Source of the DNA: a virus | Taxonomy: Duplodnaviria; Caudoviricetes | IMG/VR virus record: IMGVR_UViG_3300023174_005626 | Location: 32,001 to 96,000 of that record | Length of the DNA: 64,000 bases | Strand: one strand, 5' to 3' | In this document: positions 10,918 to 48,108 of the stretch, piece by piece | Numbering within the stretch: position 1 is the stretch's first letter | How the letters are laid out: the number at the start of each line of letters is the position of its first letter | Program-made: the position numbers and the translations under genes | Notes under the pieces: generated by a model | The model's input: only the letters and a program-made list of their open reading frames with translations | Told to the model about the DNA's origin: nothing | Database searches by the model: none

Positions 10918-10924
10918 ATTTTTA

Positions 10925-13900
10925 TTAGATATTTTCAAATGAAGCTCCTGTTGGTGTGATAAAGAATTCAATATCAATAAATTCAAGAGCTTTAGTTGGT
11001 TTAAGATAAATTTTACCTGTTAAAGTGTTTCTATCTAAGTCTTCAGGTGAAGAAGATACTGTTACACGGAAGTCATAAAGACCTCTATCTCTTCTAATAC
11101 CATCTAAGATTGGGTTAACACTATCCAAAAACTGTTGTCTTACAACTTGGTCGTTTTGTTCAAATAACAATCTAACCGCTACAGCTGAAATTAACTTACG
11201 AGCTTGTAACAACAATCTTCTAACGTTTAATCTGTTAAGAGCTGTGTCAGCAACTTGAAGTGTCTTGTTACCCCAAATTACAGTTCCAACGTCAGCAAAT
11301 GTTGCGATTGGGTTGATTCTACCTTGATAAAGAGTATCTCTATCTTCTTGAGTCAACTTAACTCTCGCTTTGATTGAATTTACAAGACCTCTTGTGTAAC
11401 CCGCTGATGCGAACCAAGGGAATGCAATATTATCTGTTAAAGCTAAGTTTCTACAAACCTCGCCAGTTGCTGGTAAATAGATTTGTGTATTATTAACAGT
11501 ATCTCTTGTTAAAATCCAAGGATAATAAGTAGCCGTATAGTTTGAATCAATTCCTGTATTATCTAAATTATCAACAGCCTCTTGTGGATAGATAATCGCT
11601 TGAGGGTCAGTTGCATCAGGAAGATACATGTTATAGTCAGGAGTTGTTACAATATACACGGAATCAGCTCTTTGGAATTGAATCATGTTGATAGCCGCTT
11701 CACACAAATTAGAATTAAATACATAATCAATACTTGCAGTTGCAAATACGTTTATGTTTGTTGCTTCAGGATTTGCAAAGGTTAAGATACCAAGTAAGTA
11801 AGCGTAGTAGTCAGTGTTTGCGAAATCTTGAGTATTGTTTTGTACAACAATTCTCTTGAACATACCGTCACCTGTTGCTGTAGGGTATCTTGAAGAAGGA
11901 TAAGCTCCTGCTAAATAACCTGACGCACCTAATTGGAATCTATCTGTATTTGTTCTTGATTCTTCATAAATATCCCAACCATCAAATCCACCAGCAAAAC
12001 ATACTGTATACTTTCTTGAGTAGATATAGTAGTAAGGGTTTTCTTGAGTTTCTGGGTCCATTCTAAAATCTGCAACCCCACACTCAAATGCTGTTTGACC
12101 GCTTGTCTCATATATGTTACCGATAGTAACAACAGTTGCTCCTGAGTCCATATGGAATCCTTTTGAAAGTACATTCCAAGGAATAGAATCTGTTGCAACT
12201 TCCCAACCTGATTGAGGATTTTGTTTACCTTTATAAGTTAAGAATGATTCGTCAATACCATATTCTGTTGAGAATCCTAAGTAACTTCTTCTTACAATGT
12301 TACCTGGAGATTCAACAGCGTTGGTACCACCGAAAGGACTATTAAATGGAGGGTTAGCAATTACTTCACCAGGATAATAATACTTTGTTTTGAATTTAGG
12401 ATATGGTGATGGGTTATTAGGACTAGCGTATTCTCTTTGTGTGTAACCGTAGAACCCACAAGGTAATGCATCAATAGGATACTCGTCAGCTAATTCAATC
12501 ATAATATATTTTGAAATAAGAGCAAACTCCCCGTTAGATGAACCAATTTTTTTAGCAACAAAATTATTTGATGCTGGGTCCATGTTACAGTTTGTAAATT
12601 TCTCAATAACCACAGGATTTGCATCTGTATCAAAGAAGTTTCTAACTAAAACATCAAAACTCATATTATTGAATGATAAGTTAGCAATTGAAACTTTAAT
12701 CTCAACATTCGCGGAATCTCCGTCAGAAATTGAAATAAATTTAAATAATCTATAAACTCTATTACCTCTTAATTCTGAAACTAAGAATGGTGTTTCAGGT
12801 GATTGATATTTTTCTAAATTCCAAGCAATTGAAGAAGCACTTCTACTTCTAGCACCTGGTAATGCAACTAACTCACAATTTAAACCTTTAATATAACCTT
12901 GGTTGTATGCATAATTTAAAGTACCAGGATAAATCTCCTCAACAAATATCGGTGTTTCAAATCTTGATTTACCAAAATTATCTAAACCTAATACCTTTGT
13001 AATATATTTTGAAGATGCTGCAGATAAAGAAGATTCTAGTTGGAATGCATTACCATCTTTAGTAATACCTGACAATAAGAATTGTTCGTATGGTGACTGA
13101 GTAACTCCTGAATACTGACCTGTACAAACCATAGTTAAATCAGTTAAACCACTAACCTCATAAATTGGTCCATGGTCATCACTACTAGCGCTATTGGCAT
13201 AAAGTGAAATACCTCTTGAACGAAGTGTTGCGATTACCATGTTATTAAACTCAGAGTATGCAGTTCCTGAAAAAGTATAAACATTACCTTCAATTGTACC
13301 TGTATAATTTCCTGCCGCTCCCGTTACTAAGTTTGTTACTGAATAATAGAAAGAGTAACCTGAATAATCATTACCTGAATAATTGTCAAAGTTAGCATAA
13401 AACCAAGCATCGTTATTATTAGAACTTAAATCGTTTGTCTCTAAGTTATTAGTATCACAAAGATACTCATTGATTTGATTACTATATTGTGTAACAACTG
13501 GCCAATAATCAGAACCTGGTATTGCACCATAGAATGCAACTGTTGTTGCAGATAATGATGGTTGTTGTGCTATACTATTAATCTCGGTTGAGAAATCAGC
13601 AAATAAGTTAGATGTACTTCCATCGCTCATTCTATATTGAACATAAAGATTTGGTGTGATATAACTATCAAACACCGCATCAGGTGTTGTAAAATTAAAC
13701 GTATCACCTGTAGAATTTCCACTGAAATCTATAGAGAAAGCTTGACCAACATTTGTTTCTAATCCAATTGTTGTTGGGTCAACATTAGCTGTTGTTCTAA
13801 TACTCCATGATGGACCCGCATCATAACCCGAAAGACCCAATACTCTCGTAACAAACAATTGGTTAGATTGTTGTAAATAAGATTTTGCGATATACGCAGC

Positions 13901-14137
13901 CTCATATTGTGGGATTTGTGTATTCACAAACTTGACAGGTTCTGTACCACCGAAGTAGGCTTGGAATTCGTCATAGTTTGTTATAAAGACAGGTTCAAAA
14001 GCGGGACCCTTTATAGTCTCACCTACTAAACCTAATGTTGTAACACCCACGCTCTGAGCCACGAACGATAAGTCCGTTTCAGATGTATAAACACCTGGGG
14101 ATACAAATACTTTTTGATTAACTTGTGCTGTTGCCAT
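10925..14137 (-). CDS. gp18: Contractile tail sheath protein (1070 aa, enlarged)
   Basis: N-terminal VSPGVYTSETDLS..GETIKGPAFEP; C-terminal PWFASAGYTRG, INPIATF, IWGNKTL, NVRRLL, IYLKPTKALEFI. Confidence 0.95.
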   Translation of the reverse strand: MATAQVNQKVFVSPGVYTSETDLSFVAQSVGVTTLGLVGETIKGPAFEPVFITNYDEFQAYFGGTEPVKFVNTQIPQYEAAYIAKSYLQQSNQLFVTRVLGLSGYDAGPSWSIRTTANVDPTTIGLETNVGQAFSIDFSGNSTGDTFNFTTPDAVFDSYITPNLYVQYRMSDGSTSNLFADFSTEINSIAQQPSLSATTVAFYGAIPGSDYWPVVTQYSNQINEYLCDTNNLETNDLSSNNNDAWFYANFDNYSGNDYSGYSFYYSVTNLVTGAAGNYTGTIEGNVYTFSGTAYSEFNNMVIATLRSRGISLYANSASSDDHGPIYEVSGLTDLTMVCTGQYSGVTQSPYEQFLLSGITKDGNAFQLESSLSAASSKYITKVLGLDNFGKSRFETPIFVEEIYPGTLNYAYNQGYIKGLNCELVALPGARSRSASSIAWNLEKYQSPETPFLVSELRGNRVYRLFKFISISDGDSANVEIKVSIANLSFNNMSFDVLVRNFFDTDANPVVIEKFTNCNMDPASNNFVAKKIGSSNGEFALISKYIMIELADEYPIDALPCGFYGYTQREYASPNNPSPYPKFKTKYYYPGEVIANPPFNSPFGGTNAVESPGNIVRRSYLGFSTEYGIDESFLTYKGKQNPQSGWEVATDSIPWNVLSKGFHMDSGATVVTIGNIYETSGQTAFECGVADFRMDPETQENPYYYIYSRKYTVCFAGGFDGWDIYEESRTNTDRFQLGASGYLAGAYPSSRYPTATGDGMFKRIVVQNNTQDFANTDYYAYLLGILTFANPEATNINVFATASIDYVFNSNLCEAAINMIQFQRADSVYIVTTPDYNMYLPDATDPQAIIYPQEAVDNLDNTGIDSNYTATYYPWILTRDTVNNTQIYLPATGEVCRNLALTDNIAFPWFASAGYTRGLVNSIKARVKLTQEDRDTLYQGRINPIATFADVGTVIWGNKTLQVADTALNRLNVRRLLLQARKLISAVAVRLLFEQNDQVVRQQFLDSVNPILDGIRRDRGLYDFRVTVSSSPEDLDRNTLTGKIYLKPTKALEFIDIEFFITPTGASFENI

Positions 14138-29086: not shown

Positions 29087-29109
29087 CTGAATATAATAAA
29101 TTATTATTT

Positions 29110-30186: not shown

Positions 30187-30267
30187 CTTATTTCTTATTT
30201 ATCTAATAAATACTAAGATTTTGGCTAATTTATTCAAGAAGAATAAAAAAATATTTTTTGTTAAAAG

Positions 30268-31632: not shown

Positions 31633-31662
31633 AATATATAAATACTTTAAAAAAATATTTTA

Positions 31663-32211: not shown

Positions 32212-32222
32212 TTATATTAAAT

Positions 32223-34229
32223 TTAACTTGGGGTTATTGTAGGTGTTATTGTTGGTGTCGGTGTTAGACAGTTATACATTTCATATCCCAAATCATTACA
32301 AGGTAGTGATAGGTATGTTAAATCAGGACAAAGTAATATTGTTGGTACTAGGTCATTACTAGGTATCACAATTCTACAGTTAGGACAATCAGGGTCTAAT
32401 AATCCGTATCTATTCTTCAGAATTCTGAAGTTATGTTTAATCTGAGAAGCGTTGAGTGGTTCAAGATACATTCTAAATGCACTTACATCCCCAATTAAAC
32501 TACCACCAAAAATCTCTTCAAGTTTTATATGTGTTGTTAATCCTGAATAAATTGTGTTATCTAAATCATTTGTCGTCAAACATTCAGGGTCTTGTTGGTA
32601 TACAATATCATCAACGGTTTCAGGGCAACCTCCCGAAAAAGTTAGGTTGTCATGTAAACCTTGTGTACCACCACCAACTGAAATGTTATAACCTACACCA
32701 ATTTGTCTTTCTTTTGGTGTGTTTAATAACCTTGGTATAATCTCTTCAAAATCTTCTGCAACCATGAATAGTCTACCGTTAACGTAAAACTTCAATGTAC
32801 CCAATCTGTATTTTTCTTCTTCGGTCCACATGTCATTGAACTTAACAACTTCTGTTGTTGCTGGGTCGTAAGGCTGTTCGTGAGTCAATGGAGGTTCAAT
32901 AAGACTCACACTATTATTCGCTGGTGTTGCCGTGAAAATTGTGTTAACAATTAATCCTAATCCACCTTTTTCATATAGGTCACAAGTATCTAACCATTGG
33001 TTTCTTTGGAATACCGCGTCAATCTGAACCCAATGTTCAACGTTTGGATATGTTGTTTGAATACAATCATGGAAAATACCTCTTGTTGAACACCACTCAC
33101 TTATTGTGACTCCCGTTTGATAAGTAAGACCTGTAAGACAAGTTCCCGAATGTTCACAGTGACCAGTGATTCTATAGGTTTTGACACATAATCTTGGGTT
33201 TCCTGTGTCACCACTTAATCTCAATGAAAGGGCATTTGACACACCATCATATAATGGGTCAGTTTCAGGATACTTTACGGTTACGGTACAATTACAAGGA
33301 CATCCGCAATTGCAATTTGTTGATGTTCCTCCTGATTGTTGGTAAACATGTATACAACTATGTTCCGCGGTTTTACCTGTTTGTTCACATTCACAAGTGT
33401 GCATACAAGTCAAACCTGAAGTTACTCTTGTATATCCTGTATCTTGTTTTGGACTTCCGTCAGGATAGTGGTAGAATTTATTCTCAGCTCTTGCTCCCAT
33501 ATAAAAGAAGGTACCTTTATTATTCGGATATCTTTTATTTAATCCTGTGTCAGTATTTCCTGTCCATCTATATTTCAACATGAATTCTGCAGTCCAACCT
33601 AATGAAACTCTTTGAGGAAAAACTTGATAATCATATCCTGGTATTTTATAAAACCCTTGGAAGAATCCTCCATCAAGTCTAGCGAAATAACCAACAGAAT
33701 CTCCATTTGTTTCATAATTTAAATCATATGTATACGAATCATCATTCCATAATCTATTACTTGAGGTTGTGAATCCTGTGATAGGATGCATTTTCATTCT
33801 CCTATCGTATTTGTATCTATTGTAAGTGTCTGCTGAGGTTGTATATAACCCTGTTGTAATTTCAATGGTTTCACCAGACATTTTTTTAGTCAATCCGTTA
33901 TCAATACCTGTCAAACCAACATCACACAATTCAGTTACAACAGGACAAAAATTAGGGTCAACATAGTCTGGATTCCAATAATTTTCAGAAACAATAACAT
34001 CATTATCAAAACTACAAGAATTGGTTTGACAAATTGTTGTTGCAGAATTATTGAAGTCAAATTTGAATGGCATTCTATTCCCATCATCTTCACCAATTAA
34101 AAGTGGTGAGAATACAACCTCTTGGTCATAATCTTTTTCGTCTGATGCAAGGCAAATGTCCGTTATTTCATTGAACGGAATTAGTCCCCATCTCCTAAAA
34201 TTATATTGATTAATGTTTTGGTATGCCAT
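32223..34229 (-). CDS. Cys-rich LamG/ConA-like virion protein with a TP tail
   Basis: GWTAEF, LKFYVNGRL and FRMYLEPLNASQIKHNF are LamG-like; CNCGCPCNC insert; ends in TPTPTITPTITPS. Confidence 0.6.
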   Translation of the reverse strand: MAYQNINQYNFRRWGLIPFNEITDICLASDEKDYDQEVVFSPLLIGEDDGNRMPFKFDFNNSATTICQTNSCSFDNDVIVSENYWNPDYVDPNFCPVVTELCDVGLTGIDNGLTKKMSGETIEITTGLYTTSADTYNRYKYDRRMKMHPITGFTTSSNRLWNDDSYTYDLNYETNGDSVGYFARLDGGFFQGFYKIPGYDYQVFPQRVSLGWTAEFMLKYRWTGNTDTGLNKRYPNNKGTFFYMGARAENKFYHYPDGSPKQDTGYTRVTSGLTCMHTCECEQTGKTAEHSCIHVYQQSGGTSTNCNCGCPCNCTVTVKYPETDPLYDGVSNALSLRLSGDTGNPRLCVKTYRITGHCEHSGTCLTGLTYQTGVTISEWCSTRGIFHDCIQTTYPNVEHWVQIDAVFQRNQWLDTCDLYEKGGLGLIVNTIFTATPANNSVSLIEPPLTHEQPYDPATTEVVKFNDMWTEEEKYRLGTLKFYVNGRLFMVAEDFEEIIPRLLNTPKERQIGVGYNISVGGGTQGLHDNLTFSGGCPETVDDIVYQQDPECLTTNDLDNTIYSGLTTHIKLEEIFGGSLIGDVSAFRMYLEPLNASQIKHNFRILKNRYGLLDPDCPNCRIVIPSNDLVPTILLCPDLTYLSLPCNDLGYEMYNCLTPTPTITPTITPS

Positions 34230-34281: not shown

Positions 34282-35106
34282 ATGATTACCACAGATAAAG
34301 AATTTTATTCATCACCATATTATTTTTTCCTTAGAGATAAGGGAAAAGATTATTCTTTATACTTCTCGGTTGAAGAAACTTTAACTGAAGCAAGAAAAAA
34401 AGATGAGATGATTAAAGTACCAAAAGATAAGGTTAAACATGTTAAAGCATATTTGGAAAAGTTATTAAAGGGAAAAAAGAAAAAATCAACAAAAGATGTT
34501 TCAGGTGAGTTAGAAGAACTTGTTAACTTGGATGGTGCGATATCAAATAGTAAAATTCCAATCCTTGACCCTAAGCTTCATCCAAGAAAAACTATGGACC
34601 AAACTGTTGCAGCGGCAAGAATTACAAACGACCCAATATCTCGTGGATATAGAACATATTATGGTGAGTCAGTAGAAGAAGAAGTTAGTGAAATAGATAT
34701 GTCAAAAGCATTTGGTTACGAAGAAACTGAAGATATGGATGGTAAAGAAACTTTTGACTACATGGTTGATGAATTAGAAATGGAACCTGAAGAGGCAATA
34801 GATAGAACTGAACAACAAGGTAAAGACCCATCAGGAAAGAAAGATAAAAAGTCAGAATATTACCACGACAAGAATTTTATTACAAGAGCAACATTATCTG
34901 AGATTCAAAAACAAAAAGCAATCAAAATGGTTGAGGATTTGTTAATGAAGAAAAAAAATACAGATAACTCTGAGGTTGGTAAAAAAGAGTCTAGCTCTAA
35001 AGAAGCGTCAAATATTCTAAAAAAGAATCTTAAGTCTCTTCTTAAACAGATGGATAAAGAAGGATTATCAAGAAAAGATATTCTTAAACTATTAGACGGT
35101 GAATAA
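34282..35106 (+). CDS. Hypothetical late (probably head-associated) protein
   Basis: 274 aa, highly charged, late motif upstream, with LTE/VSE/LSE sites. Confidence 0.5.
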   Translation: MITTDKEFYSSPYYFFLRDKGKDYSLYFSVEETLTEARKKDEMIKVPKDKVKHVKAYLEKLLKGKKKKSTKDVSGELEELVNLDGAISNSKIPILDPKLHPRKTMDQTVAAARITNDPISRGYRTYYGESVEEEVSEIDMSKAFGYEETEDMDGKETFDYMVDELEMEPEEAIDRTEQQGKDPSGKKDKKSEYYHDKNFITRATLSEIQKQKAIKMVEDLLMKKKNTDNSEVGKKESSSKEASNILKKNLKSLLKQMDKEGLSRKDILKLLDGE

Positions 35107-36287: not shown

Positions 36288-36920
36288 ATGAATGAAAACG
36301 ATTTAATGAGTAGATTGGTAGCGTCAAAGGCTATTATGGATAATCCAAAATTTACTAAAAGCAGAAATACAATGAATGACGGATTACCTCCAACATCTTT
36401 ACAAGATTTTGACGTACCTAATGCAAAATATAATATTCCTCAGGAATTCTTACAAGAATCTCCATCAATGAGTCAACCTTATTTATCTGAACTTCCTAAA
36501 GTTAATACAAAACCAGTTGGTGTACCAAGTGTTGATGCAATAAAAAGTTCTAAATTACCTGATGAGATTAAAAGATTAATGATTGAACACCCAATTGCAC
36601 AAGCACAACAACAAGGAGGAGGAGCGACATTATCTGATGATTTAATTGAGAGAGCATCAAGACTAATGAAAAATGAAAATTCAAACAACTATATTCCTGA
36701 GTCTATTAAACCCAAAGCACAACAACAACCTCAAACACAACCTACATCACAAATTGATTATAAGTTAATTAAAAAAATGATTAGAGAAGCTGTTGATGAA
36801 GCATTACAAGAAAATGGATTAATGGTTGAGAGTAGTGAAAAGGCTAACGAGATGTTAAGTTTTAAAGTTGGAAAACACCTTTTTGAAGGTAAAGTAACAA
36901 AAATCAAAAAATTACTTTAA
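36288..36920 (+). CDS. Hypothetical protein
   Basis: 210 aa with a Q/P-rich linker; SKLPDEIKRLMIEHPI and IKKMIREAVDEAL. Confidence 0.55.
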   Translation: MNENDLMSRLVASKAIMDNPKFTKSRNTMNDGLPPTSLQDFDVPNAKYNIPQEFLQESPSMSQPYLSELPKVNTKPVGVPSVDAIKSSKLPDEIKRLMIEHPIAQAQQQGGGATLSDDLIERASRLMKNENSNNYIPESIKPKAQQQPQTQPTSQIDYKLIKKMIREAVDEALQENGLMVESSEKANEMLSFKVGKHLFEGKVTKIKKLL

Positions 36921-39528: not shown

Positions 39529-39699
39529 ATGGGAAAGTATTACGAAAATTTATCAACCTTAATAGAACTTATAAATAAATTAGATAAAAAAAATATTTTA
39601 GCAGAATTTATTTTGGACTGTATTGTCATGGCAAAAGACGCTCCTGACAAATCACCACATGAAATAATAAAAGAGGCGAAGAAAAAAAGACTCAAATAA
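39529..39699 (+). CDS. Small hypothetical protein (56 aa)
   Basis: Not in the ORF track; MGKYYENLSTLIELINKLDKKNILAEFILDC...KKRLK* fills the gap and its stop overlaps the next ATG. Confidence 0.5.
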   Translation: MGKYYENLSTLIELINKLDKKNILAEFILDCIVMAKDAPDKSPHEIIKEAKKKRLK

Positions 39700-41327
39700 T
39701 GTTAACAGTAGCATATTCAACAAGAGAACACAAACCAGAATTTATTGAATACCTGAAAAAAAGTTCAGGATTTAAAAAAATTGAAGTTATTGAAAAAGTT
39801 AATAATGGTGAAAAATCTTTATCTCAAGTATATAATGAAATTTTGTCTGAATCAAAAACTGACATAATTGTTTTTTGTCATGACGACATTTATTTTGATA
39901 CGACAGGTTGGTATCATAAATTAATGAAACATTTTGATAAATCAGATTATGGTATTATCGGAATGGCAGGTACAACTGATATGCCATCAAGTGGTAAATG
40001 GTGGGAAGATAGAAAAAAAATGATTGGAATTGTTAACCACGAAAATGGTGGAAAAAAATGGGAATCAAAATATTCCGAATCATTAAACAACAATATTGGT
40101 CAAACAATAATTGTTGATGGTTTATTTATTGCAATTGATAGAAGAAAAATTAAAAAAAGTTTTAACGAAGAATTTGAAGGGTTTCATTTTTATGACATCC
40201 CTTTTTGTTTTGAAAACCATTTAGAAGGTGTCAAAATTGGCGTAATAACAAATATTAGAATCACTCATAAATCTATTGGTCAAACCAACGAACAATGGGA
40301 AAAAAATAGACAGTTATTTGAAAAAAAATATAAGAACAACCTTCCATTAAAACTTCCTTTTGACCCAAAAAAAAGGCTTAAGGTTTTAATCTCTTGTTTA
40401 TTTTTTAGAACATTCACAGGCTCTGAATTATATGTTTATGAATTAGCCAAAGGTTTACAAAAAGAAAATTGTGATGTTACGGTTATGTCACAAATAGGTG
40501 GACCATTGACCGACATGGCAAAAAAAGCGGGTATTAAATGCATAACATTTGAACAAGCACCAGGTTTTAAACTTGGAGATGGTGTGTGGACTTTTGACGC
40601 TGGAAATGGTGTACAAACTTCAACACCAAATATGATGTATAGAATCTCGGATGTTAATTTTGATTTGATACATATGCAACACAAACCAGTTGCTGAAAGA
40701 ATGATTCAGTTTTATCCTGAAATTGACAAAATATATTCAATTCATTCTGAGGTTATAGAATTAGAAGACCCAATCACACATAAATCAATTAAAAAATATA
40801 TTGCAATTAGACCTGAGATTAAAAACTATATGATTAATAATTTTGAAATCCCTGAAAAAGATATTGAAGTTATTTATAATCCTGTAGACAACGAAAAATT
40901 CAAATCAAAACCTTCAAAAGTTCAAAACGCTGTTTTATTTGTTGGTACGATAGATTATCTGAGAAGAGAAACAATTATGGATTTAATTGAATATACAAAA
41001 GATAATGATAAAGAACTTTGGTTAATGGGAGAAGACAAACAAAATTATTTGTCAACAATTTTAACACAATCTCACGTCAAACATTTTAACCCAAATTGGA
41101 ATGTTGAAAAACTAATTAATGAGTGTGATGAAACAGCAGGAATACAATTAGGAAGAACTACAATTGAAAGTTGGTTATGTGGGAAACCAAGTTGGATTTA
41201 TAAAGTAAATTCATTTGGAAATATTGAGTCTAAAGAAAAATTTGACCCACCTACTGATTTAGAAAAATACCATGTAAATAATGTTGTTAAACAAATCAAA
41301 GAACAATATTTAAAGATTCTCTCATGA
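39699..41327 (+). CDS. Bifunctional GT2-like + GT4-like glycosyltransferase
   Basis: N-domain FCHDDI, DGLFIA, FHFYD; C-domain FTGSELYVYELAKGL, IYNPVD, GRTTIE. Confidence 0.8.
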   Translation: MLTVAYSTREHKPEFIEYLKKSSGFKKIEVIEKVNNGEKSLSQVYNEILSESKTDIIVFCHDDIYFDTTGWYHKLMKHFDKSDYGIIGMAGTTDMPSSGKWWEDRKKMIGIVNHENGGKKWESKYSESLNNNIGQTIIVDGLFIAIDRRKIKKSFNEEFEGFHFYDIPFCFENHLEGVKIGVITNIRITHKSIGQTNEQWEKNRQLFEKKYKNNLPLKLPFDPKKRLKVLISCLFFRTFTGSELYVYELAKGLQKENCDVTVMSQIGGPLTDMAKKAGIKCITFEQAPGFKLGDGVWTFDAGNGVQTSTPNMMYRISDVNFDLIHMQHKPVAERMIQFYPEIDKIYSIHSEVIELEDPITHKSIKKYIAIRPEIKNYMINNFEIPEKDIEVIYNPVDNEKFKSKPSKVQNAVLFVGTIDYLRRETIMDLIEYTKDNDKELWLMGEDKQNYLSTILTQSHVKHFNPNWNVEKLINECDETAGIQLGRTTIESWLCGKPSWIYKVNSFGNIESKEKFDPPTDLEKYHVNNVVKQIKEQYLKILS

Positions 41328-42034
41328 TTATTTTAACAACAACATATAATTGTGCTCCGTATGTTGAAAGGAGTCTACTGAGTATTATGTCTCAGAGATT
41401 TAAAGATTTCACTTGTTACATACTTGATGATGTGTCTACTGACAACACAATAGAAATTGTAAAAAAAACAATAGAAGGTGATTCAAGATTTATACTTGTT
41501 GAAAATCACACCAAGTTTTACCAACCAGGAAATTATAACCAAGTAATAAATTGGAGAGCGATACCTGGTGATGAAATTTGTGTTGAGGTTGATGGTGATG
41601 ATTGGTTACCAAACTCAAATGTTTTTGATTTAATTAATGAAACATACAAAGACCCTGAAGTTTGGATGACAAGTGGTTCATTTAAATATCACGATGGAAG
41701 ACCAGGGTTTGCGAATCCTCCTACTCACTTCACAAATGTTAGAAAACAAGCGTTTACCCTTTCTCATCTTAGAACTTGGAAATCTTGGTTATGGAAAAAA
41801 ATTAAAGAAGAGGATTTAAGAGATGAAAATGGTAATTATTGGAGCGTTGCTGGTGACTTATCATTTATGTTTCCAATGTTTGAAATGTCAGGTCAAGAAC
41901 ATTATAGATTTTTACCAAACATAAATTACATTTATAACGAATCTAACCCAATCAATGACCATAAAGTCAACATGTCTAATGTTACTCAAACGGTAAATAA
42001 AATAAGAAATAAAACACCATACACAAAATTATGA
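41324..42034 (+). CDS. Glycosyltransferase family 2
   Basis: TTYNC..SIMSQ, DDVSTD, VDGDDWL. Confidence 0.88.
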   Translation: MIILTTTYNCAPYVERSLLSIMSQRFKDFTCYILDDVSTDNTIEIVKKTIEGDSRFILVENHTKFYQPGNYNQVINWRAIPGDEICVEVDGDDWLPNSNVFDLINETYKDPEVWMTSGSFKYHDGRPGFANPPTHFTNVRKQAFTLSHLRTWKSWLWKKIKEEDLRDENGNYWSVAGDLSFMFPMFEMSGQEHYRFLPNINYIYNESNPINDHKVNMSNVTQTVNKIRNKTPYTKL

Positions 42035-42678
42035 GTTTTGACACAAGTATTGAGAACATTATTTTAGAACTCAATGAAACAAAAAAAATTGATAACATAC
42101 TTCATATTGGAGCGTGTTTAGGTGAAGAAATATCATTCTACCAAAGACTACAACCTAAAAACATTTATTGGTTTGAACCTAACCCAAAATTGGTTAAACA
42201 ACTTAACGAAAATGTTACTAAACAAGACTTTATAAGTATTGTATTTCCTTATGCCGTTAGTAGTAAAAAAGGTACCGCTGAATTTAACATTATTGAAAAT
42301 ACAACTAAAACAAATCCTGGATGCTCTTCATTACAGAATTTAAAAATTCATGCAGAATTATATACAGACATTACAAAAGTTGACACTTGCATTGTTGAGA
42401 CAATTAACATTGATGAATTTCTTCGTGAAAATAACTTAGAATCAAATTTTGATTTAGTTAGTTTAGATACACAAGGTCATGATTTTGAAATATTAAATTC
42501 AAGTGACATTATTTTTAACGCAAAAGTAATTGTAATTGAAACTGCAAAAGTAGAACTTTACGAAGGACAAAAAGTTGATACAGAAATTGACGCTCTTTTA
42601 GAATCTAAAGGATACTATAAAAACTACTATCATCAATTCCATAATGTTTGGGGTGATAGTTTATACTTAAAAAAATAA
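42031..42678 (+). CDS. FkbM-family methyltransferase
   Basis: LHIGACLGEE, FEPNP, LDTQGHDFEIL, ELYEGQ. Confidence 0.85.
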   Translation: MSFDTSIENIILELNETKKIDNILHIGACLGEEISFYQRLQPKNIYWFEPNPKLVKQLNENVTKQDFISIVFPYAVSSKKGTAEFNIIENTTKTNPGCSSLQNLKIHAELYTDITKVDTCIVETINIDEFLRENNLESNFDLVSLDTQGHDFEILNSSDIIFNAKVIVIETAKVELYEGQKVDTEIDALLESKGYYKNYYHQFHNVWGDSLYLKK

Positions 42679-42682
42679 AACT

Positions 42683-43297
42683 ATGTCAGTAAAAACTGAA
42701 GTTGATAAGTGGATTGCCGATAAATGTAATGAAAGGTTAATAGCTAATTACCCGTTAGACGAAAACTCTTGGGTAATTGATTTGGGTGGTTATTTTGGTG
42801 CGGCAACACAAAAAGTTGTTTCAAAATATAACTGTAATGTTTTAGTGATAGAACCCGTAGAAGATTTTTACAATATTATTATTGAAAAGTTCAAGGATAA
42901 TTCCAAAGTTATTGTTGAAAATAATGGAATTTCCACAGAAGAAAAAGAAGTTGTTTTGGATTACAACTACGATGGAACATCTTCATATACAAACACAAGT
43001 GAAATAAAAATAAATGTCAAATGTTATCCAATAGATTATTATCTGAAAAAATATAATATTGATAGAATTGATTTATTGATGGTCAACATTGAGGGTGAAG
43101 AATTTCCTCTTTTTGAAAAATGGATTAAAACTGATTTTTTGAATAAAGTTAATTATCTTGAAATACAATTTCATCCTTGGATTGATGATTCGGTTGAAAG
43201 AAAAAACAAAATTGAAAATGGTTTTGTAAATCTTGGATTTGAAAACCTATGGGATTATCAATTCGCATTTACATCTTGGAAAAATAAAAATTATTAA
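42683..43297 (+). CDS. FkbM-family methyltransferase
   Basis: VIDLGGY, IEPV, VNIEGEEF, IQFH. Confidence 0.8.
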   Translation: MSVKTEVDKWIADKCNERLIANYPLDENSWVIDLGGYFGAATQKVVSKYNCNVLVIEPVEDFYNIIIEKFKDNSKVIVENNGISTEEKEVVLDYNYDGTSSYTNTSEIKINVKCYPIDYYLKKYNIDRIDLLMVNIEGEEFPLFEKWIKTDFLNKVNYLEIQFHPWIDDSVERKNKIENGFVNLGFENLWDYQFAFTSWKNKNY

Positions 43298-43298
43298 T

Positions 43299-44126
43299 AT
43301 GGGAAATTTAATCACAGCCAACTTAATGGGTGGTTTAGGTAATCAATTATTTGAAGCCGCCCACGCACTATCACAAGGTTGGAAACACAATAGAGAAACA
43401 GTATTCCTTCCACATTCTTGGACACCTGGTCAAGGTAGAGGTGCCGAAAATTATATTAACAATGTATTCAGAAATTTAAAGTTTATTGAAAGAGTTGAAG
43501 ACACGACTACAGTAAACGAAGGACCTTTTGAATATTCAGAAGTTAATCCAGTAGAAGGAGATACCGCATTTCACGGATACTTTCAATCAACAAAAAATTG
43601 GTTTGGATTTGACGAAAAGATTAGAGAAATATTCCAACCACCTGTAGAACTTGTAGAAGAGTTCATGGGAAAATATCCCCAACTGTCTCAACCAAATACA
43701 TTATCACTTCACGTTAGAAGAAGTGAGTATCTTCAGTTCCCTGAAATACACCCAACAATTAGTATTGAATACATCCAAGAAGCTTTAAAAGTTATTGGTG
43801 AATATTCTACTGTGTTTGTATTCAGTGACGACCACGACTTTGTAAAAGAGAATTTAAATTTCCCTTCAGTTATTTTTGTTAACGAACCTGAAGATTATAG
43901 AGAATTATGGTTGATGGGATTATGTCAAAATCATATTATGTCAAACTCTACATTCTCATGGTGGGGAGCTTTCTTAAATAAAAAAATAAACAAAAAAATT
44001 GTTGCCCCATCTCGTTGGTTTGGTCCAAGAGGTCCTGAAGCAAAAGATATCTACGAACCATACTGGAATGTAATTCCTTGTGATTGGGTTGAGGGCGGTA
44101 AATTAATGCCGATTAAAAATGATTAA
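43299..44126 (+). CDS. GT11 alpha-1,2-fucosyltransferase-like
   Basis: GGLGNQLF, GYFQS, LHVRRSEY, FSDD, IMSNSTFSWWGA. Confidence 0.9.
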   Translation: MGNLITANLMGGLGNQLFEAAHALSQGWKHNRETVFLPHSWTPGQGRGAENYINNVFRNLKFIERVEDTTTVNEGPFEYSEVNPVEGDTAFHGYFQSTKNWFGFDEKIREIFQPPVELVEEFMGKYPQLSQPNTLSLHVRRSEYLQFPEIHPTISIEYIQEALKVIGEYSTVFVFSDDHDFVKENLNFPSVIFVNEPEDYRELWLMGLCQNHIMSNSTFSWWGAFLNKKINKKIVAPSRWFGPRGPEAKDIYEPYWNVIPCDWVEGGKLMPIKND

Positions 44127-44745
44127 TACAAATCCTAACAACAAAACATGTGAAATATCTCACATCCAATATACCGTAAAAACTAACAATTATAACTTGA
44201 TTGGTGACGTTATTGAATTTGGAACTTTTACGGGAGGGAGCACAAAAACCTTATCATCATTATTTCCTGATAAAACAATATTCACAATTGACCATTTTCA
44301 AGGGTTAGAACAAACCAACAAGAACGTACCAAGTGACAGTGATTGGATTGAAAGAGCATTCGCATTAGATAATCCATTATATGTTAATAACCATAATGTA
44401 CCTAAATCTATTGATGAAGTTAGAGAAAGATTTGTAGGATTTAATAATATCAAAATGATTATCTCTGATGTTCACGAATTAACAGAACCATCTGATTATG
44501 GTATTGGTAAAATTGCTATTTGTAATTTAGATGTTGATATCTACGAACCAGCAGTGTCAGCGTTAGAGTTCTTAACTAAATGTGAATGGTCAGAAGTATT
44601 CATCAGATTTGACGATTGGCACGGTGGTGAAAAAGAATATGACCAACATGAAAGATTGGCATTTACAGAATGGATTGAAAAATATAACTATAAATTTAAC
44701 ATCACTCATGGAGGATATATTGGTGGTGTATATGTAAAACGATAA
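44119..44745 (+). CDS. TylF/MycF-like O-methyltransferase (paralog 1)
   Basis: GDVIEFGT, DHFQGL, LDVDIYEP, FDDW. Confidence 0.8.
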   Translation: MINTNPNNKTCEISHIQYTVKTNNYNLIGDVIEFGTFTGGSTKTLSSLFPDKTIFTIDHFQGLEQTNKNVPSDSDWIERAFALDNPLYVNNHNVPKSIDEVRERFVGFNNIKMIISDVHELTEPSDYGIGKIAICNLDVDIYEPAVSALEFLTKCEWSEVFIRFDDWHGGEKEYDQHERLAFTEWIEKYNYKFNITHGGYIGGVYVKR

Positions 44746-45303
44746 AATGATTAACACAAATCCAAACATAGATTCTTGTACATTAGAAACTCTCTGTTCT
44801 GTTATCCAAAACTATAATTTAGTTGGGGATGTTTTAGAATTTGGAACATGTACTTGTCAAAGTGCAATTCAATTAGCAACCTCATTACCTGAAAAAACTA
44901 TTTTTACAATAGACCATTTTAAAGGGTTAGAAAAAACTAATAAACCTTTACCATTCACAAGTGACTGGAGTGAAGGGTCTTTCGCTTTAGGTGCTTGGAA
45001 TGCAATAGGAGAAGATTTTCCAAGAACAATAGAAGAAGCGAAACGTAAATTATCCACAAGACCAAACATTACACTTATCTTGTCTGACATTCATAAACTA
45101 ACCGAACCTGCAGATTATAATATTAAAAAGATTGCAATTTGTAATGTGGATGTGGATATCTATGAACCAACCGTATCATCATTAGAATTTTTAACTAAAT
45201 GTGAATGGTCAGAAGTATTTATCAGATTTGACGATTGGCACGGTGGTGAATCAGAATATGACCAACATGAAAGATTGGCATTCACAGAATGGATTGAAAA
45301 ATA
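44572..45303 (+). repeat. 113-bp near-identical direct repeat (44572-44684 and 45191-45303)
   Basis: TTAACTAAATGTGAATGGTCAGAAGT...GAAAAATA; 4 mismatches by manual alignment. Confidence 0.85.
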
Positions 45304-45364
45304 CAATTACCAATATGAAGTCGTATATGGCGGATTATATGGAGGAGCAATAATAAAACGATAA
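44747..45364 (+). CDS. TylF/MycF-like O-methyltransferase (paralog 2)
   Basis: GDVLEFGT, DHFKGL, VDVDIYEP, FDDW; tandem duplicate of paralog 1. Confidence 0.8.
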   Translation: MINTNPNIDSCTLETLCSVIQNYNLVGDVLEFGTCTCQSAIQLATSLPEKTIFTIDHFKGLEKTNKPLPFTSDWSEGSFALGAWNAIGEDFPRTIEEAKRKLSTRPNITLILSDIHKLTEPADYNIKKIAICNVDVDIYEPTVSSLEFLTKCEWSEVFIRFDDWHGGESEYDQHERLAFTEWIEKYNYQYEVVYGGLYGGAIIKR

Positions 45365-45366
45365 AA

Positions 45367-46200
45367 ATGGAAAAAAAATTAATTAGAAAAGTATCTGATT
45401 GGTGGGGTGAATATGATTGTTCATCAAACCGTAACATGCCAAAACACATTCAATGGCTATCAAGAGACACCGAAACACCACACGAAGTGAGTGTTTATGT
45501 TGATAACTACATCAAAGATTGGGGATTCAATGACCCAAAAAGAGATAAGATTGGGTGGTTATTAGAATCACCTCAAATGAATGAAGGTACCATCAAATAT
45601 CTCGTTGACAACATTGATATGACAAGAGAACATTTCAAATGGATTTTCACTTGTATGGATAGTCTTATTGAATTAGGAGCTCCATTTGTATATAACATTT
45701 CAAATGCAGTTCCTTGGATTTGGGAAAAAAACAGAGCAATTCATCCTAAAACTAAATTGGTATCAATGATTGCATCTAACAAAGGATGGTTACGTGGACA
45801 CCAAAATAGATTACAGTGGGTTGAAAGATTGAAAGATAAAGTTGACTTATTTGGTTCAGGAAGACCAAATCAATTAAACGATAAAGAAGATGGGTTAAGA
45901 GATTATATGTTTTCAGTAGCAATTGAAAATGATGACTCAGACACTTATTTCACAGAAAAATTAACTGACTGTTTTGCCATGGGTACTGTACCAGTATATT
46001 ATGGTTCAAGAAAAGTTGTTGAAAAATACTTTGACCCAACTGGTGTTATTTTCTTAGAAGATGATGCTGACTTGTCAACATTGACACCAGAAAAATATCA
46101 ATCATTAATGCCAGCAATTGAAAGAAATTTTGTTGCAGCAAATAATCTACCTGTATCTGAAGACTACATGTGGGAAAATTATCTAAAAAATTTATTTTAA
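45367..46200 (+). CDS. GT10 alpha-1,3/4-fucosyltransferase-like
   Basis: WLLESP, VSMIASNK, YMFSVAIEN..YFTEKLTDCFAMGTVPVYYG. Confidence 0.85.
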   Translation: MEKKLIRKVSDWWGEYDCSSNRNMPKHIQWLSRDTETPHEVSVYVDNYIKDWGFNDPKRDKIGWLLESPQMNEGTIKYLVDNIDMTREHFKWIFTCMDSLIELGAPFVYNISNAVPWIWEKNRAIHPKTKLVSMIASNKGWLRGHQNRLQWVERLKDKVDLFGSGRPNQLNDKEDGLRDYMFSVAIENDDSDTYFTEKLTDCFAMGTVPVYYGSRKVVEKYFDPTGVIFLEDDADLSTLTPEKYQSLMPAIERNFVAANNLPVSEDYMWENYLKNLF

Positions 46201-46201
46201 T

Positions 46202-47017
46202 ATGAAATATCTAGTACTTGGCTCATCAGGGCAAATTGGAGCAGAACTTTGTAAATTTTTAAAGAAAGAAGGTCACGAAGTTTTAACATTTGATATAGAA
46301 AACGATTCTATACAAGATTTAAGAATTAAAGGAATTGTTGATTCACACATTAACGAAGCAGATTTTGTGATGTTTTTAGCGTTTGATGTTGGTGGTTCAA
46401 GATATTTGAAAAAATATCAAAACACTTATGACTTTATTGATAATAATGCTAAACTTATGGTTCATACATTTAACTCGTTGAAATCATACAGAAAACCATT
46501 TATTTTTGCATCATCTCAGATGTCCAACATGTCATATTCCCCATACGGGATTGCAAAGGCTTTAGGTGAATCTTACACAAGAGCGTTAGGAGGTATCACA
46601 GTTAAGTTTTGGAATGTTTATGGTCCTGAACACAATTTAGAAAAATCTCACGTAATTACTGACTTTATCTTAAAGGCAAACAATTATGGACACATTACCA
46701 TGATGACCGATGGAACCGAACAAAGACAATTCTTACACGCTGAAGATTGTTCAAATGCATTGATGATTCTTTCTCAAAAATATAATGAAATAGATAGAGA
46801 CAAAGAATTACACATTACAAATTTTAAGTGGGAGTCTATTCTTGAAGTTGCATTAATTATTAGCGAAGAAATACCTTGTAGAATTACTCCAGGGAAAGAT
46901 ACTGATACAGTTCAACTCAATAAAAGAAATGAACCAGACCCTTATGTTTTGAATTTTTGGGAACCAAAGATTTCATTAAGAGAGGGTATAAAAAGAATAA
47001 TTAATGAAATGATATGA
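46202..47017 (+). CDS. NAD-dependent nucleotide-sugar epimerase/dehydratase
   Basis: VLGSSGQIG, ASS, YGIAK, NVYGP, GTEQRQFLH. Confidence 0.85.
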   Translation: MKYLVLGSSGQIGAELCKFLKKEGHEVLTFDIENDSIQDLRIKGIVDSHINEADFVMFLAFDVGGSRYLKKYQNTYDFIDNNAKLMVHTFNSLKSYRKPFIFASSQMSNMSYSPYGIAKALGESYTRALGGITVKFWNVYGPEHNLEKSHVITDFILKANNYGHITMMTDGTEQRQFLHAEDCSNALMILSQKYNEIDRDKELHITNFKWESILEVALIISEEIPCRITPGKDTDTVQLNKRNEPDPYVLNFWEPKISLREGIKRIINEMI

Positions 47018-48108
47018 AAAAAATAGTAGTATTAGGTGGAGGTGGATTCATCGGAGGACACCTTGCAAAAAGATTAAAAGAAGAAGGTAATCACGTTAGA
47101 ATCTGTGATATTAAAAAACACGAATACTTCTTTCAAGATGAAATATGTAACGAGTTTATTTTAGGGGATTTAACAGACCCTAAGGTCGTAGATTTAGTCA
47201 TTGAAGAGGGAGTTGATGAAGTATATCAATTAGCTGCTGACATGGGTGGAGCTCTTTATATCTTTACTGGTGAGAACGACGCAAATCTTATGCACAACTC
47301 AGCAACCATCAACCTAAACGTATCAAGAGAATGTGTTAAGAAAAAAGTTGGAAAAGTATTTTATTCTTCTTCGGCTTGTATGTATCCTGAACACAACCAA
47401 CTTGACCCATTAAATCCAAACTGTGAAGAAAGTTCCGCATATCCTGCGAACCCAGATTCAGAATACGGATGGGAAAAATTATTCTCTGAAAGAGTATTTT
47501 TGGCATACCATAGAAACTACGGATTAAATGTAAGAATTGCAAGATTCCATAACATATTTGGGCCGCAAGGTACTTGGAAAGGTGGTCGAGAAAAATCGCC
47601 AGCAGCAATGTGTAGAAAAGTCGCTGAAGCTAAAGACGGAGATATTATTGAAGTGTGGGGTAACGGTATGCAAACACGTTCATTCTTATATGTTGAGGAA
47701 TGTGTTGAGGCAGTTCTAAGATTAATGAACAGTGACTTCACTGGACCTGTTAATATTGGTAGTGAAGAAATGGTAACAATCAACCAACTTGCTGGAATGG
47801 CAATTGCAATTTCTGAAAAGAATTTAGAAATCAAAAACATTGATGGAGAAGAATTTGTTCAAAAATATGGATTCAAATGTCCATTAGGTGTTAAAGGTAG
47901 AAATTCAGATAATAAACTTTACCGAGAAAAAATTGGATGGGAAGTTAGTCAACCACTTTCAATTGGGCTAAAAAAGACTTATAATTGGATTAAGTCACAA
48001 GTTGACCATGTAGAACTTAACACTCCTTGGATTTATGAAAGTCCTGATGGTGGTAATTCAATCTACAGAAGAGAACCAGGTAGTTTAGAAAAACAAAAAA
48101 TTAAATAA
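47014..48108 (+). CDS. GDP-mannose 3,5-epimerase-like SDR
   Basis: GGGGFIG, LAADMGG, SSSACMYP, YGWEK, RFHNIFGP.GTWKGGREK.PAA.CRK, GVKGRNSDN. Confidence 0.88.
   Translation: MKKIVVLGGGGFIGGHLAKRLKEEGNHVRICDIKKHEYFFQDEICNEFILGDLTDPKVVDLVIEEGVDEVYQLAADMGGALYIFTGENDANLMHNSATINLNVSRECVKKKVGKVFYSSSACMYPEHNQLDPLNPNCEESSAYPANPDSEYGWEKLFSERVFLAYHRNYGLNVRIARFHNIFGPQGTWKGGREKSPAAMCRKVAEAKDGDIIEVWGNGMQTRSFLYVEECVEAVLRLMNSDFTGPVNIGSEEMVTINQLAGMAIAISEKNLEIKNIDGEEFVQKYGFKCPLGVKGRNSDNKLYREKIGWEVSQPLSIGLKKTYNWIKSQVDHVELNTPWIYESPDGGNSIYRREPGSLEKQKIK

Follow-up and report, generated by a model that had tools for sequence, protein, structure and literature searches.

A putative O-glycosylation acceptor motif is over-represented in unrelated proteins of a jumbo-phage relative and accompanies a divergent phage glycosyltransferase

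Inspection of a tailed-phage fragment (IMG/VR record IMGVR_UViG_3300023174_005626) revealed a four-residue pattern, [ST]G.T (the dot denoting any residue), that is sharply defined and over-represented in several unrelated proteins. Among the genomes compared, its surplus appears only in phages that also carry a divergent, probable GT-B glycosyltransferase, encoded here at 36976–38187. We lean towards reading the motif, in the refined form [ST]-[GA]-x-T with x not Pro, as a putative O-glycosylation acceptor tag recognized by this transferase. The record comprises 109,482 bases, is a fragment (35% complete according to CheckV) and yielded 93 counted ORFs; all coordinates refer to the window, i.e. 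the whole 64,000-nt stretch analysed (positions 32,001 to 96,000 of the record).

A sharply defined motif in several unrelated proteins

The highest motif number occurred in P0001, a 668-aa protein:

32223..34229, minus strand: P0001 gene (668 aa), with 11 [ST]G.T and 2 [ST]A.T sites
33105..33878, minus strand: motif-dense P0001 stretch (residues 118–375), holding 10 of the 11 [ST]G.T sites

The plus-strand frame of 32223–34229 is stop-rich and the minus-strand product is P0001. Its [ST]G.T sites (residues 118, 151, 223, 264, 271, 284, 299, 339, 366, 372 and 562) exactly match the 11 copies listed in a first-pass annotation made from the sequence alone, which had anticipated about one copy in a protein of this size; the composition of P0001 predicts 0.93. 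None of 2000 whole-protein shuffles reached 11 (mean 0.91), nor did any of 2000 in which residues were shuffled within 20-aa (mean 1.26) or 40-aa blocks (mean 1.04). Enrichment over shuffled sequences, a check that the annotation had proposed, persists after correction for both overall and local composition.

Over the whole record, 65 [ST]G.T sites were found compared to 25.7 expected, the maximum in 2000 shuffles being 47. Seven motif-rich proteins, mutually devoid of BLASTP similarity at E<0.01, hold 45 sites vs. 5.6 expected, an 8-fold excess that is inflated by this set having been picked for enrichment; the remaining 86 ORFs hold 13 vs. 15.8 expected. Apart from P0001, enriched products include the following:

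10925..14137, minus strand: tail sheath (1070 aa; PHROG tail sheath, residues 820–1068), 6 [ST]G.T sites vs. 1.1 expected
12092..13711, minus strand: sheath part outside the conserved core (residues 143–682), holding all 6 sheath sites
53121..55241, plus strand: 706-aa protein without Pfam or PHROG match, 5 [ST]G.T sites vs. 0.43 expected
56998..58506, plus strand: 502-aa protein kept in all related phages, 6 sites vs. 0.53 expected

The sheath sites (143, 329, 343, 356, 665 and 679) thus lie outside the conserved core at residues 820–1068, and the 53121–55241 protein contains the run SGNT-LVS-SGNT-LIN-SGTT. All counts previously given for other proteins (sheath 6, 56998–58506 6, 53121–55241 5, among others) were reproduced. 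As a list of enriched proteins, that earlier tally holds for these three and fails for two Thr-rich products, 30268–31632 (5 sites vs. 2.5 expected) and 29110–30186 (2 vs. 2.2), which show no enrichment after composition correction. Single [ST]G.T sites occur in 31663–32211, 10051–10881 and the capsid (1 vs. 0.48 expected). The tail tube has none, and the reported absence from the polymerase, the helicase and the 1685-aa protein was borne out on recount (0 each).

Within the seven motif-rich proteins, variants of the pattern were counted as well. Ser at the fourth position carries no excess ([ST]G.S, 6 vs. 5.6 expected, 1.07-fold), the reversed T.G[ST] is absent (0 vs. 5.6), and barring Ser/Thr from either end gave 38 vs. 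29.0 for [^ST]G.T and 60 vs. 57.6 for [ST]G.[^ST]. As Ala at the second position is also over-represented ([ST]A.T, 13 vs. 3.7, 3.5-fold), [ST]-[GA]-x-T describes the motif more accurately. In an unbiased scan through the 8000 a-b-x-c patterns, S-G-x-T took first place among those not arising from Thr-Pro tracts (37 vs. 11.1 expected, spread over 15 proteins). The flanks show no extended or periodic pattern, and Pro occupies x in only 1 of 225 motif instances. At the DNA level, the 45 sites comprise 42 distinct 12-mers; codons vary without a DNA repeat, as had been noted before, and the pattern therefore resides at the protein level. A repeat-based, DNA-level explanation was rejected on the same count.

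Predicted structure of P0001

P0001 has a conserved body of ~650 aa that contains a probable ConA-like jelly-roll core, together with a Cys-rich insert and, at the C-terminus, a Thr-Pro linker. A single-sequence structure prediction (mean pLDDT 28.5) was discarded in favour of an AlphaFold2 model built from alignment A3 (mean pLDDT 83.3). Foldseek searches with this model returned weak matches (best E 2.8e-3, TM 0.19/0.34), every one of them to a lectin-like jelly roll, and some P0001 homologs bear PF13385 in C-terminal extensions. P0001 itself had no match in Pfam or PHROG, nor by tblastn against deposited phage genomes. As PHROG and Pfam provide no match, the earlier designation of this protein as structural is putative. 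In a DSSP analysis of the model, one of the 11 sites falls inside a strand and the other 10 are in loops or at the ends of strands.

Conservation of the motif and its concerted loss in one clade

Across 100 members of the P0001 family (27–76% identity), 914 sites were counted vs. 128 expected, a 7-fold excess. Of the 13 [ST][GA].T sites of P0001, 9 are kept in at least 88% of 58 distinct close homologs, with Ser/Thr swaps at position 1, Gly/Ala swaps at position 2 and an almost invariant Thr at position 4. Motif positions differ between lineages, and the excess persists. Homologs with 0–1 sites, which belong to one clade of related jumbo phages, keep the Gly; position 1 is occupied by Asn, Asp, Tyr or Glu, and position 4 by varied residues.

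This divergence extends to entire proteomes. Five transferase-bearing phages have proteome-wide observed/expected ratios of 2.49, 2.95 (2.22 without one repeat fibre), 2.34, 2.40 and 2.0, as opposed to 1.03, 1.21 and 1.36 in three transferase-less phages; six control patterns range from 0.78 to 1.69 in all genomes compared. Over 19 orthologous proteins of at least 300 aa, the ratio is 3.1–3.4 with the transferase and 0.9–1.3 without it. Orthologs of the 56998–58506 protein carry 2, 0 and 1 sites in three jumbo phages with the transferase and no site in three without it. The transferase-less genome with the ratio of 1.36 encodes a 393-aa protein with 6 sites vs. 0.86 expected.

The motif might alternatively mark a structural turn at β-strand ends or a β-helical fibre repeat, its link to the transferase being a phylogenetic coincidence in which one clade uses other residues. 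Most sites in the P0001 model do fall at loop/strand junctions, Gly is retained even in the motif-losing clade, and the co-variation (see below) is a single event. Moreover, the 2060-aa fibre of one relative is built on a hexapeptide repeat, [IV]-[ST]-G-x-T-x, with 83 sites, in which the motif could be purely structural. We nevertheless regard this reading as improbable: orthologs fold with other residues in place of the Ser/Thr of position 1 or the Thr of position 4, motif positions change between lineages while the excess stays, the excess is found in unrelated folds, and the flanks lack a periodic hydrophobic pattern. A generic turn would neither exclude Ser at position 4 (1.07-fold) nor vanish across the proteomes of a sister clade. 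The sequence comparison supports the view that the motif is not a generic β-turn habit of the P0001 family, because sister-clade orthologs keep Gly and lose the flanking Ser/Thr and Thr, and because the whole proteomes of the motif-losing clade lack the excess.

A divergent glycosyltransferase gene co-varies with the motif

The candidate enzyme lies close to the P0001 gene:

36976..38187, plus strand: divergent, probable GT-B glycosyltransferase (403 aa), candidate motif reader (phrog_7162 'glycosyltransferase', E 1.3e-44)

Its match to Pfam Glyco_trans_1_4 remains under the cut-off (21.4 bits vs. 27), and NCBIfam gave weak C-terminal matches alone. Sequence and profile searches of the PDB found no relative (best profile match E 0.067, a GT group 1 protein), and in the Atlas the closest clusters consist of virus-only 'RfaG-like' glycosyltransferases.

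In counts that represent one evolutionary loss and carry no phylogenetically corrected statistic, a transferase homolog was found within 10 kb of the P0001 homolog at 61 of the 72 close loci, at 35 of the 58 distant loci with motifs and at none of the 19 loci with 0–1 motifs. Whole-record searches of the 19 records with 0–1 sites likewise revealed no transferase (0/19), three of them being 100% complete and five more 60–77% complete. Of the 23 motif-bearing records without a copy within 10 kb, 13 hold one elsewhere, including all seven that are at least 90% complete; the other ten are each at most 61% complete. Across lineages whose proteins have diverged to ~30% identity, the transferase stays within ~4 kb of the most motif-rich gene.

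Among the 93 ORFs of the record, the transferase alone was present in 3/3 transferase-bearing and 0/3 transferase-less jumbo genomes. Viewed from the relatives, 6 of the 102 families common to four transferase-bearing jumbo genomes are missing from three transferase-less genomes: two BACON-domain proteins, an AAA ATPase, a 385-aa and a 209-aa unknown, and the transferase. The BACON domains are, separately, a weak hint of a Bacteroidota host.

The protein tree (18 rows, support 100) and a six-marker core tree both group the phages lacking the transferase into a single clade, so the co-variation is a single event; a tree-aware test gave 1 independent pair. A second independent loss, sought in viral and metagenome collections via the motif-free homologs P0155 and P0174, was not found, as these collections contain neither the contigs of the two homologs nor close relatives. 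The nearest match to P0155 showed 53% identity, and every relative of this kind has both motif and transferase; P0174 gave no match. Bacterial transferase homologs from Bacteroidota genomes (25–31% identity) have flanks without motif excess, although these are mostly small non-structural genes, too distant to inform.

The first-pass annotation had proposed the motif as a site for one of the many phage glycosyltransferases and suggested asking which of them co-varies with it. The excess indeed tracks one such gene, 36976–38187, with a perfect match of presence and absence; this attribution is qualified by resting on a single loss, that is, one independent event, and by five other families co-varying.

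Neighbouring genes and other glycosylation genes

Further genes in the region bear on the transferase and its possible partners:

36288..36920, plus strand: 210-aa protein without Pfam or PHROG match, just upstream of the transferase, with a weak homolog that co-varies with it among jumbo relatives
34282..35106, plus strand: 274-aa protein without Pfam or NCBIfam match, conserved divergent neighbour of the P0001 gene
27766..29034, minus strand: homolog of GT60-type polypeptide GlcNAc-transferases (PF11397, E 2.6e-64; PHROG, E 8.6e-164)
39699..48108, plus strand: glycan-building genes (Pfam)

The co-varying 209-aa protein, present only in transferase-bearing genomes, matches 36288–36920 at E 1e-4; the latter is also weakly matched (2e-4) in one transferase-less genome and is therefore ambiguous. 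In most related loci with enough upstream DNA, a 34282–35106 homolog separates the transferase gene from that of the P0001 homolog. DNA-metabolism genes (exonuclease, dUTPase) surround the transferase.

The GT60 homolog scores far above threshold (218 bits vs. a PF11397 cut-off of 21), but was rejected as the co-varying enzyme, as it turned up only in loci from the lineage of the window itself; Thr-Pro tracts would be its likelier targets. Genes at 39699–48108 encode a GT2+GT4 fusion, a GT2, two FkbM and two TylF methyltransferases, GT11 and GT10 fucosyltransferase-like proteins, an epimerase and a GDP-mannose dehydratase-like protein. Among jumbo relatives these genes show no co-variation with the motif, and their products may be glycan extenders. 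The fucose and methyl-sugar genes presumably resemble the glycosylation gene set of chlorovirus PBCV-1. No Pfam family for hydroxymethyl-pyrimidine synthesis was found on the record, leaving a DNA target without a visible substrate route here.

This last result matters for another explanation, in which the motif is a site for some other trans-acting factor (one of the five co-varying families, a gene off the fragment or a host enzyme, acting through another modification or as a chaperone or assembly contact), and the transferase has another substrate, such as DNA, a lipid-linked glycan or the host surface. It is a reading that draws on the five further families that co-vary, on the record being 35% complete, so that other candidates may be off the fragment, and on the exonuclease and dUTPase genes flanking the transferase; phage transferases are also widely assumed to target DNA or host surfaces (PMC10202952, PMC12619734). 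We judge it unlikely, given that the co-varying BACON proteins, AAA ATPase and unknowns have no known hydroxyl-side-chain chemistry, that the transferase remains ~4 kb or less from the most motif-rich gene across diverged lineages, and that the record lacks a Pfam route to hydroxymethylated bases.

An artefact of chance or composition (Thr-, Gly- and Ser-rich proteins, a motif chosen post hoc, crude ORF calling) would account for the two Thr-rich listed proteins and could exploit the after-the-fact selection of the seven-protein set, but is scarcely credible as 0 of 2000 shuffles, 20-aa blocks included, reach the observed count, the unbiased scan recovers the motif, and the 7-fold excess recurs in 100 family members, with an excess in four further genomes as well.

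A proposed phage-encoded sequon and its relation to known systems

To our knowledge, glycosylation of the phage particle is established for very few tailed phages. In the reading we favour, the phage's own soluble GT-B transferase (36976–38187) would read [ST]-[GA]-x-T in the host cytoplasm and place a sugar on one of two hydroxyl residues, the Ser/Thr at position 1 or the Thr at position 4. Further soluble transferases encoded on the record, along with its methyltransferases, may build on this sugar, and the resulting coat could serve the free particle, e.g. in stability, masking or adhesion. Whether this amounts to a true genetically encoded O-glycosylation sequon, read by a virus-only cytoplasmic GT-B on many folded particle proteins, we consider an even call.

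In the Asn-x-Ser/Thr sequon of N-glycosylation, likewise a short tag, the middle residue may be anything but Pro and the spacing to a hydroxyl residue is fixed. The present motif similarly shuns Pro at x (1/225), and in both cases sites move between lineages with their number kept; acceptor chemistry, compartment and enzyme differ (a membrane oligosaccharyltransferase there, a soluble GT-B here). Cytoplasmic O-glycosylation of many Ser/Thr residues on β-rich surface proteins is carried out by the autotransporter heptosyltransferases TibC and Aah (GT9). The candidate enzyme here belongs to another GT-B family, and a GT9 heptosyltransferase was rejected as the enzyme because Glyco_transf_9 (PF01075) had no match in the 11 records searched (the source record and 10 related ones; 0/11), while four control genomes scored. 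The general O-glycosylation system of Bacteroidota, a periplasmic host system, also uses a short Ser/Thr-centred tag, D-(S/T)-(A/I/L/V/M/T). This tag is unenriched in the seven motif-rich proteins (20 vs. 20.9 expected), in agreement with the annotation's distinction between the two motifs, and was rejected as an explanation.

Within tailed phages, the closest parallel is the O-glycosylation of mycobacteriophage virions by phage glycosyltransferases (Freeman et al. 2023, as cited in PMC12619734), where a tailed phage's soluble transferases modify the phage's own particle proteins within the host cell, as would be the case here. According to the same citation, mycobacteriophage glycans sit at the C-termini of capsid and tail-tube subunits. 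By comparison with that account, the sites described here are internal and distributed among the outer domains of the sheath, fibre-type proteins and a protein with a probable lectin fold, the capsid is unenriched (1 vs. 0.48) and the tube has 0 sites; a four-residue motif is implied, and the host is not an actinobacterium. Chlorovirus PBCV-1 offers a second parallel in that, according to PMC7019647, virus-encoded cytoplasmic enzymes glycosylate the capsid at non-canonical sites, a virus-encoded route on particle proteins without ER or membrane parts. That system, as described there, is N-linked on Asn in a eukaryotic algal virus, unlike the candidate Ser/Thr acceptors of a tailed phage considered here.

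Significance

In the literature covered, we found no sequence tag for tailed-phage particle glycosylation. If true, our reading would give tailed phages their first defined pairing of sequon and enzyme, one shared across a large family of uncultured jumbo phages from aquatic and gut sources. With a tag of four residues and a named candidate enzyme, the many orphan glycosyltransferases of phages become directly testable, and a soluble enzyme with so compact a tag would lend itself to glyco-engineering. Sugar coats on uncultured phages would become predictable from sequence alone, which bears on how stable particles are, how they adhere to mucus or polysaccharides and how hosts and grazers recognize them, and also on phage engineering.

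Gene and record

The gene under study is encoded on the minus strand and specifies the 668-aa protein P0001; the plus-strand frame of the same interval contains many stops. It belongs to a single virus record of 109,482 bases (G+C 32.7%), of which the window spans bases 32001–96000. Because CheckV places its completeness at 35%, the record probably represents only part of a jumbo phage genome. Among its products are the sheath, tube, baseplate hub and wedge proteins of a contractile tail, along with a major head protein, a portal, a terminase and a prohead protease. The record is also rich in soluble glycan genes: a GT60-type PF11397 enzyme, GT25, an HtrL/YibB-like protein, GT2 and GT4-like enzymes, GT11- and GT10-like fucosyltransferases, FkbM and TylF methyltransferases, an epimerase and a GDP-mannose-dehydratase-like enzyme.

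Features of the window
16011–16415: small phage protein with a SET (lysine methyltransferase) domain (Pfam E 4e-13)
18213–19751: 512-aa protein; N-terminal half a complete Fe/Mn superoxide dismutase (both Pfam domains), then ~280 extra residues of unknown family
27766–29034: GT60-type polypeptide GlcNAc-transferase homolog (PF11397, E 2.6e-64)
29110–31632: two paralogous Thr-rich proteins with Thr-Pro tracts, adjoining the GT60-type gene
31663–32211: separate 182-aa ORF, beginning 12 bases downstream of P0001
32223–34229, minus strand: P0001
36976–38187: candidate GT-B glycosyltransferase, hereafter the transferase

The GT60-type gene and its Thr-rich neighbours may constitute a second, mucin-like glycosylation system, apart from the motif described here.

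Excess of the [ST]G.T motif

The first-pass annotation had proposed a recurring [ST]-G-x-T as a candidate glycosylation sequon. All 11 sites it listed in P0001 were found (0.93 expected from composition), and its counts for other proteins were reproduced on a separate, crude ORF set (95 ORFs with ATG starts, together spanning 95% of the record), ORF calling and composition-based expectations being simple. The P0001 excess survives composition correction: none of 2000 shuffles attained 11 sites, be it over the whole protein or within blocks of 20 or 40 residues. Across the record, 65 sites were counted versus 25.7 expected, no shuffle exceeding 47, and in an unbiased whole-record scan of all 8000 single-residue a-b-x-c patterns S-G-x-T topped those outside Thr-Pro linkers (37 vs. 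11.1, in 15 proteins). Enrichment of the two Thr-rich proteins, on the other hand, disappeared after correction (30268–31632, 5 vs. 2.5 expected; 29110–30186, 2 vs. 2.2).

The excess resides in seven proteins, namely P0001, the sheath, 53121–55241, 56998–58506 and three outside the window, downstream of baseplate wedge genes (record positions 2080–5094, 7964–9379 and 9654–14606); the other 86 ORFs hold 13 sites versus 15.8 expected. BLASTP among the enriched proteins revealed no mutual similarity at E<0.01.

Patterns in the seven enriched proteins (observed / expected; the 8-fold figure for the motif is inflated, as the proteins were chosen for being enriched)
[ST]G.T: 45 / 5.6
[ST]G.S: 6 / 5.6
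[^ST]G.T: 38 / 29.0
[ST]G.[^ST]: 60 / 57.6
T.G[ST] (reversed): 0 / 5.6
[ST]GT: 9 / 5.6
[ST]A.T: 13 / 3.7
D[ST][AILVMT] (host type): 20 / 20.9

As previously suggested, the motif thus differs from the host D-(S/T)-x type, which is not enriched, and is no DNA repeat, with codons following general usage and 42 distinct 12-mers among the 45 sites. Across 225 instances, drawn from four genomes and 31 enriched proteins, the flanks showed a mild Ile/Val/Met preference at –1/–2 and nothing more, and proline occupied the x position once. The excess is confirmed as real, being neither a composition nor a turn artefact.

The two largest proteins (2581 and 1685 aa; record 25402–33147, reaching window position 1147, and window 1460–6517) lack the motif, although 4.0 sites would be expected between them. 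The avoidance is not consistent, since the orthologs of both in one relative have 6 sites apiece.

Conservation and predicted structure of P0001

The P0001 family is uncharacterised and very large, with 1872 hits in one library and 684 representatives after clustering at 50%. Nine of its 13 [ST][GA].T sites are kept in at least 88% of 58 distinct homologs (65–96% identity), in which position 1 swaps Ser and Thr (e.g. T38/S20), position 2 swaps Gly and Ala (G42/A15, A37/G20) and the Thr at position 4 is nearly fixed. Over 100 family members (27–76% identity), 914 sites were counted versus 128 expected.

Every Foldseek match of an AlphaFold2 model built from 81 aligned relatives (mean pLDDT 83.3) was weak (best E 2.8e-3) and involved a lectin-like jelly-roll module, which we regard as a resemblance of the predicted fold only. 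DSSP placed 10 of the 11 sites in loops or strand ends and one inside a strand. A Cys-rich insert (CMHTCECE … CNCGCPCNC, residues ~274–320, window 33270–33410) is modelled with lower confidence than the remainder and may form a metal or disulfide knot.

The family C-terminus past the Thr-Pro linker is hypervariable (homologs of 633 to 1785 aa). P0001 stops right after this linker (…TPTPTITPTITPS, window 32223–32260), and in relatives the P0001-type ORF reads on through C-terminal modules that are hypervariable, for a total length of up to 1785 aa. By analogy with receptor-binding proteins, the family appears to join a conserved body to a swappable tip.

That the motif is instead a structural element is unlikely. 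In its favour, a 2060-aa fibre of one relative (G029:C1:186456–192638, L226–L227), with no ortholog found in the other genomes, consists largely of the hexapeptide repeat [IV]-[ST]-G-x-T-x (83 sites), and there a structural role is inseparable from that of a tag. However, P0001 homologs with 0 or 1 sites retain Gly at the aligned positions, with position 1 occupied by Asn, Asp, Tyr or Glu and position 4 by a mixture of residues; the fold therefore needs neither hydroxyl residue.

A transferase gene accompanying the motif

The transferase matches PHROG phrog_7162 'glycosyltransferase' (E 1.3e-44) and Pfam Glyco_trans_1_4 below cut-off only; in the Atlas it lies closest to virus-only clusters of 'RfaG-like' transferases, and neither sequence nor profile searches returned a related solved structure. 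No membrane segment appears in the alignment, so it would act in the cytoplasm. Different lineages share 38–50% identity in the transferase (E about 1e-90 to 1e-117), as compared to about 30% for P0001 homologs, so that its sequence is far better conserved than that of its presumed substrate. The gene overlaps the next by 4 bases (38184–38187), a PolB-exonuclease-like 3′-5′ exonuclease followed by a dUTPase, and is thus embedded in an operon including DNA-metabolism genes.

Surroundings of 78 close and 78 distant P0001 homologs were fetched and their ORFs searched with the record's glycan genes. A transferase homolog lay within 10 kb in 61 of 72 close loci and, among distant loci, in 35 of 58 whose P0001 homolog has two or more sites, 0 of 2 with one site and 0 of 17 with none. 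Extending the search to whole records recovered it in none of 19 with 0–1 sites (three 100% complete, five 60–77%). Of 23 motif-bearing records without a nearby copy, 13 have a homolog elsewhere, among them every one of the 7 with a completeness of 90% or more; the remaining 10 are at most 61% complete, and three have near-duplicate records that carry it.

The proteome-wide comparison covered six complete jumbo relatives, of which three carry the transferase and three lack it, and a seventh whose transferase is only 38% identical.

[ST]G.T observed/expected ratios per proteome
This record: 2.49
Four relatives with transferase: 2.95 (2.22 once one repeat fibre is removed), 2.34, 2.40, 2.0
Three relatives without transferase: 1.03, 1.21, 1.36

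Six control patterns ranged from 0.78 to 1.69 in all genomes, except for [ST]A.T (3.18 and 1.88 in two transferase-bearing genomes). Proteins with at least 3 sites and Poisson p<1e-3 numbered 6/93, 3/419, 7/424 and 6/446 in transferase-bearing and 0/433, 0/405 and 1/456 in transferase-less genomes. The same held for 19 proteins of at least 300 aa common to seven genomes (35/11.3, 29/8.6, 32/9.9 and 28/8.7 observed/expected with the transferase; 10/7.5, 7/8.2 and 10/8.3 without). In one transferase-less genome, a 393-aa protein (G008:C1:31114–32295, L199) has 6 sites versus 0.86 expected, and could be a recently acquired module or due to chance.

Co-varying genes and evolutionary history

Which glycosyltransferase co-varies with the motif could be narrowed to one candidate: 36976–38187 is the sole ORF of the record's 93 found in 3/3 transferase-bearing and 0/3 transferase-less jumbo genomes. 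The two other transferases shared with the jumbo relatives (50126–51178 and 51180–51986) occur in all six and therefore cannot explain the motif difference. A GT9-type enzyme is absent, with matches in 0 of 11 records.

The reverse comparison started with a complete relative: of its 446 ORFs, 102 are matched in each of the three other transferase-bearing jumbo genomes. The 3/3 transferase-less genomes share 80 of these, and six families occur in none of them: the transferase, a 209-aa protein (weakly matching 36288–36920, the ORF directly upstream of the transferase), two BACON-domain proteins, a 385-aa unknown and an AAA ATPase. Although the transferase is consequently not the only gene to co-vary, no other co-varying enzyme has a chemistry that fits. 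Another trans-acting factor behind the motif, for which the five further families speak, is an unlikely rival, about on a par with the structural one.

The BACON-domain proteins (L180:17600–19003 and L190:5898–8729 in relative G038) occur only in transferase-bearing jumbo relatives. Together with binned-contig titles (Flavobacteriaceae, Paludibacteraceae, Bacteroidales) they hint at Bacteroidota hosts, against which stand Aquiluna, Methanobacterium and Bacilli titles.

Transferase-less phages group as a single clade in the protein tree (18 rows, support 100), where a tree-aware co-variation test yields 1 independent pair, and again in a six-marker core tree. In the latter this record sits alone on a long branch, and one transferase-bearing genome, a transferase-bearing clade and the transferase-less clade show no resolved branching. 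The simplest history would be one transferase loss followed by motif decay at many sites in several proteins, a suggestive pattern that counts as one event; a search via the motif-free homologs P0155 and P0174 found no second loss.

Literature searches found no account of the motif as a glycosylation tag, the matches listed being, by title or abstract start, on other subjects. The nearest precedents among the sources consulted are virion glycosylation in mycobacteriophages (as cited in PMC12619734) and the glycosylation of chlorovirus capsids, in which cytoplasmic enzymes encoded by the virus act on non-canonical sites (PMC7019647). The most likely reading, with somewhat more speaking for it than against it, is that the transferase at 36976–38187 recognises the motif as a phage-encoded tag for O-glycosylation.
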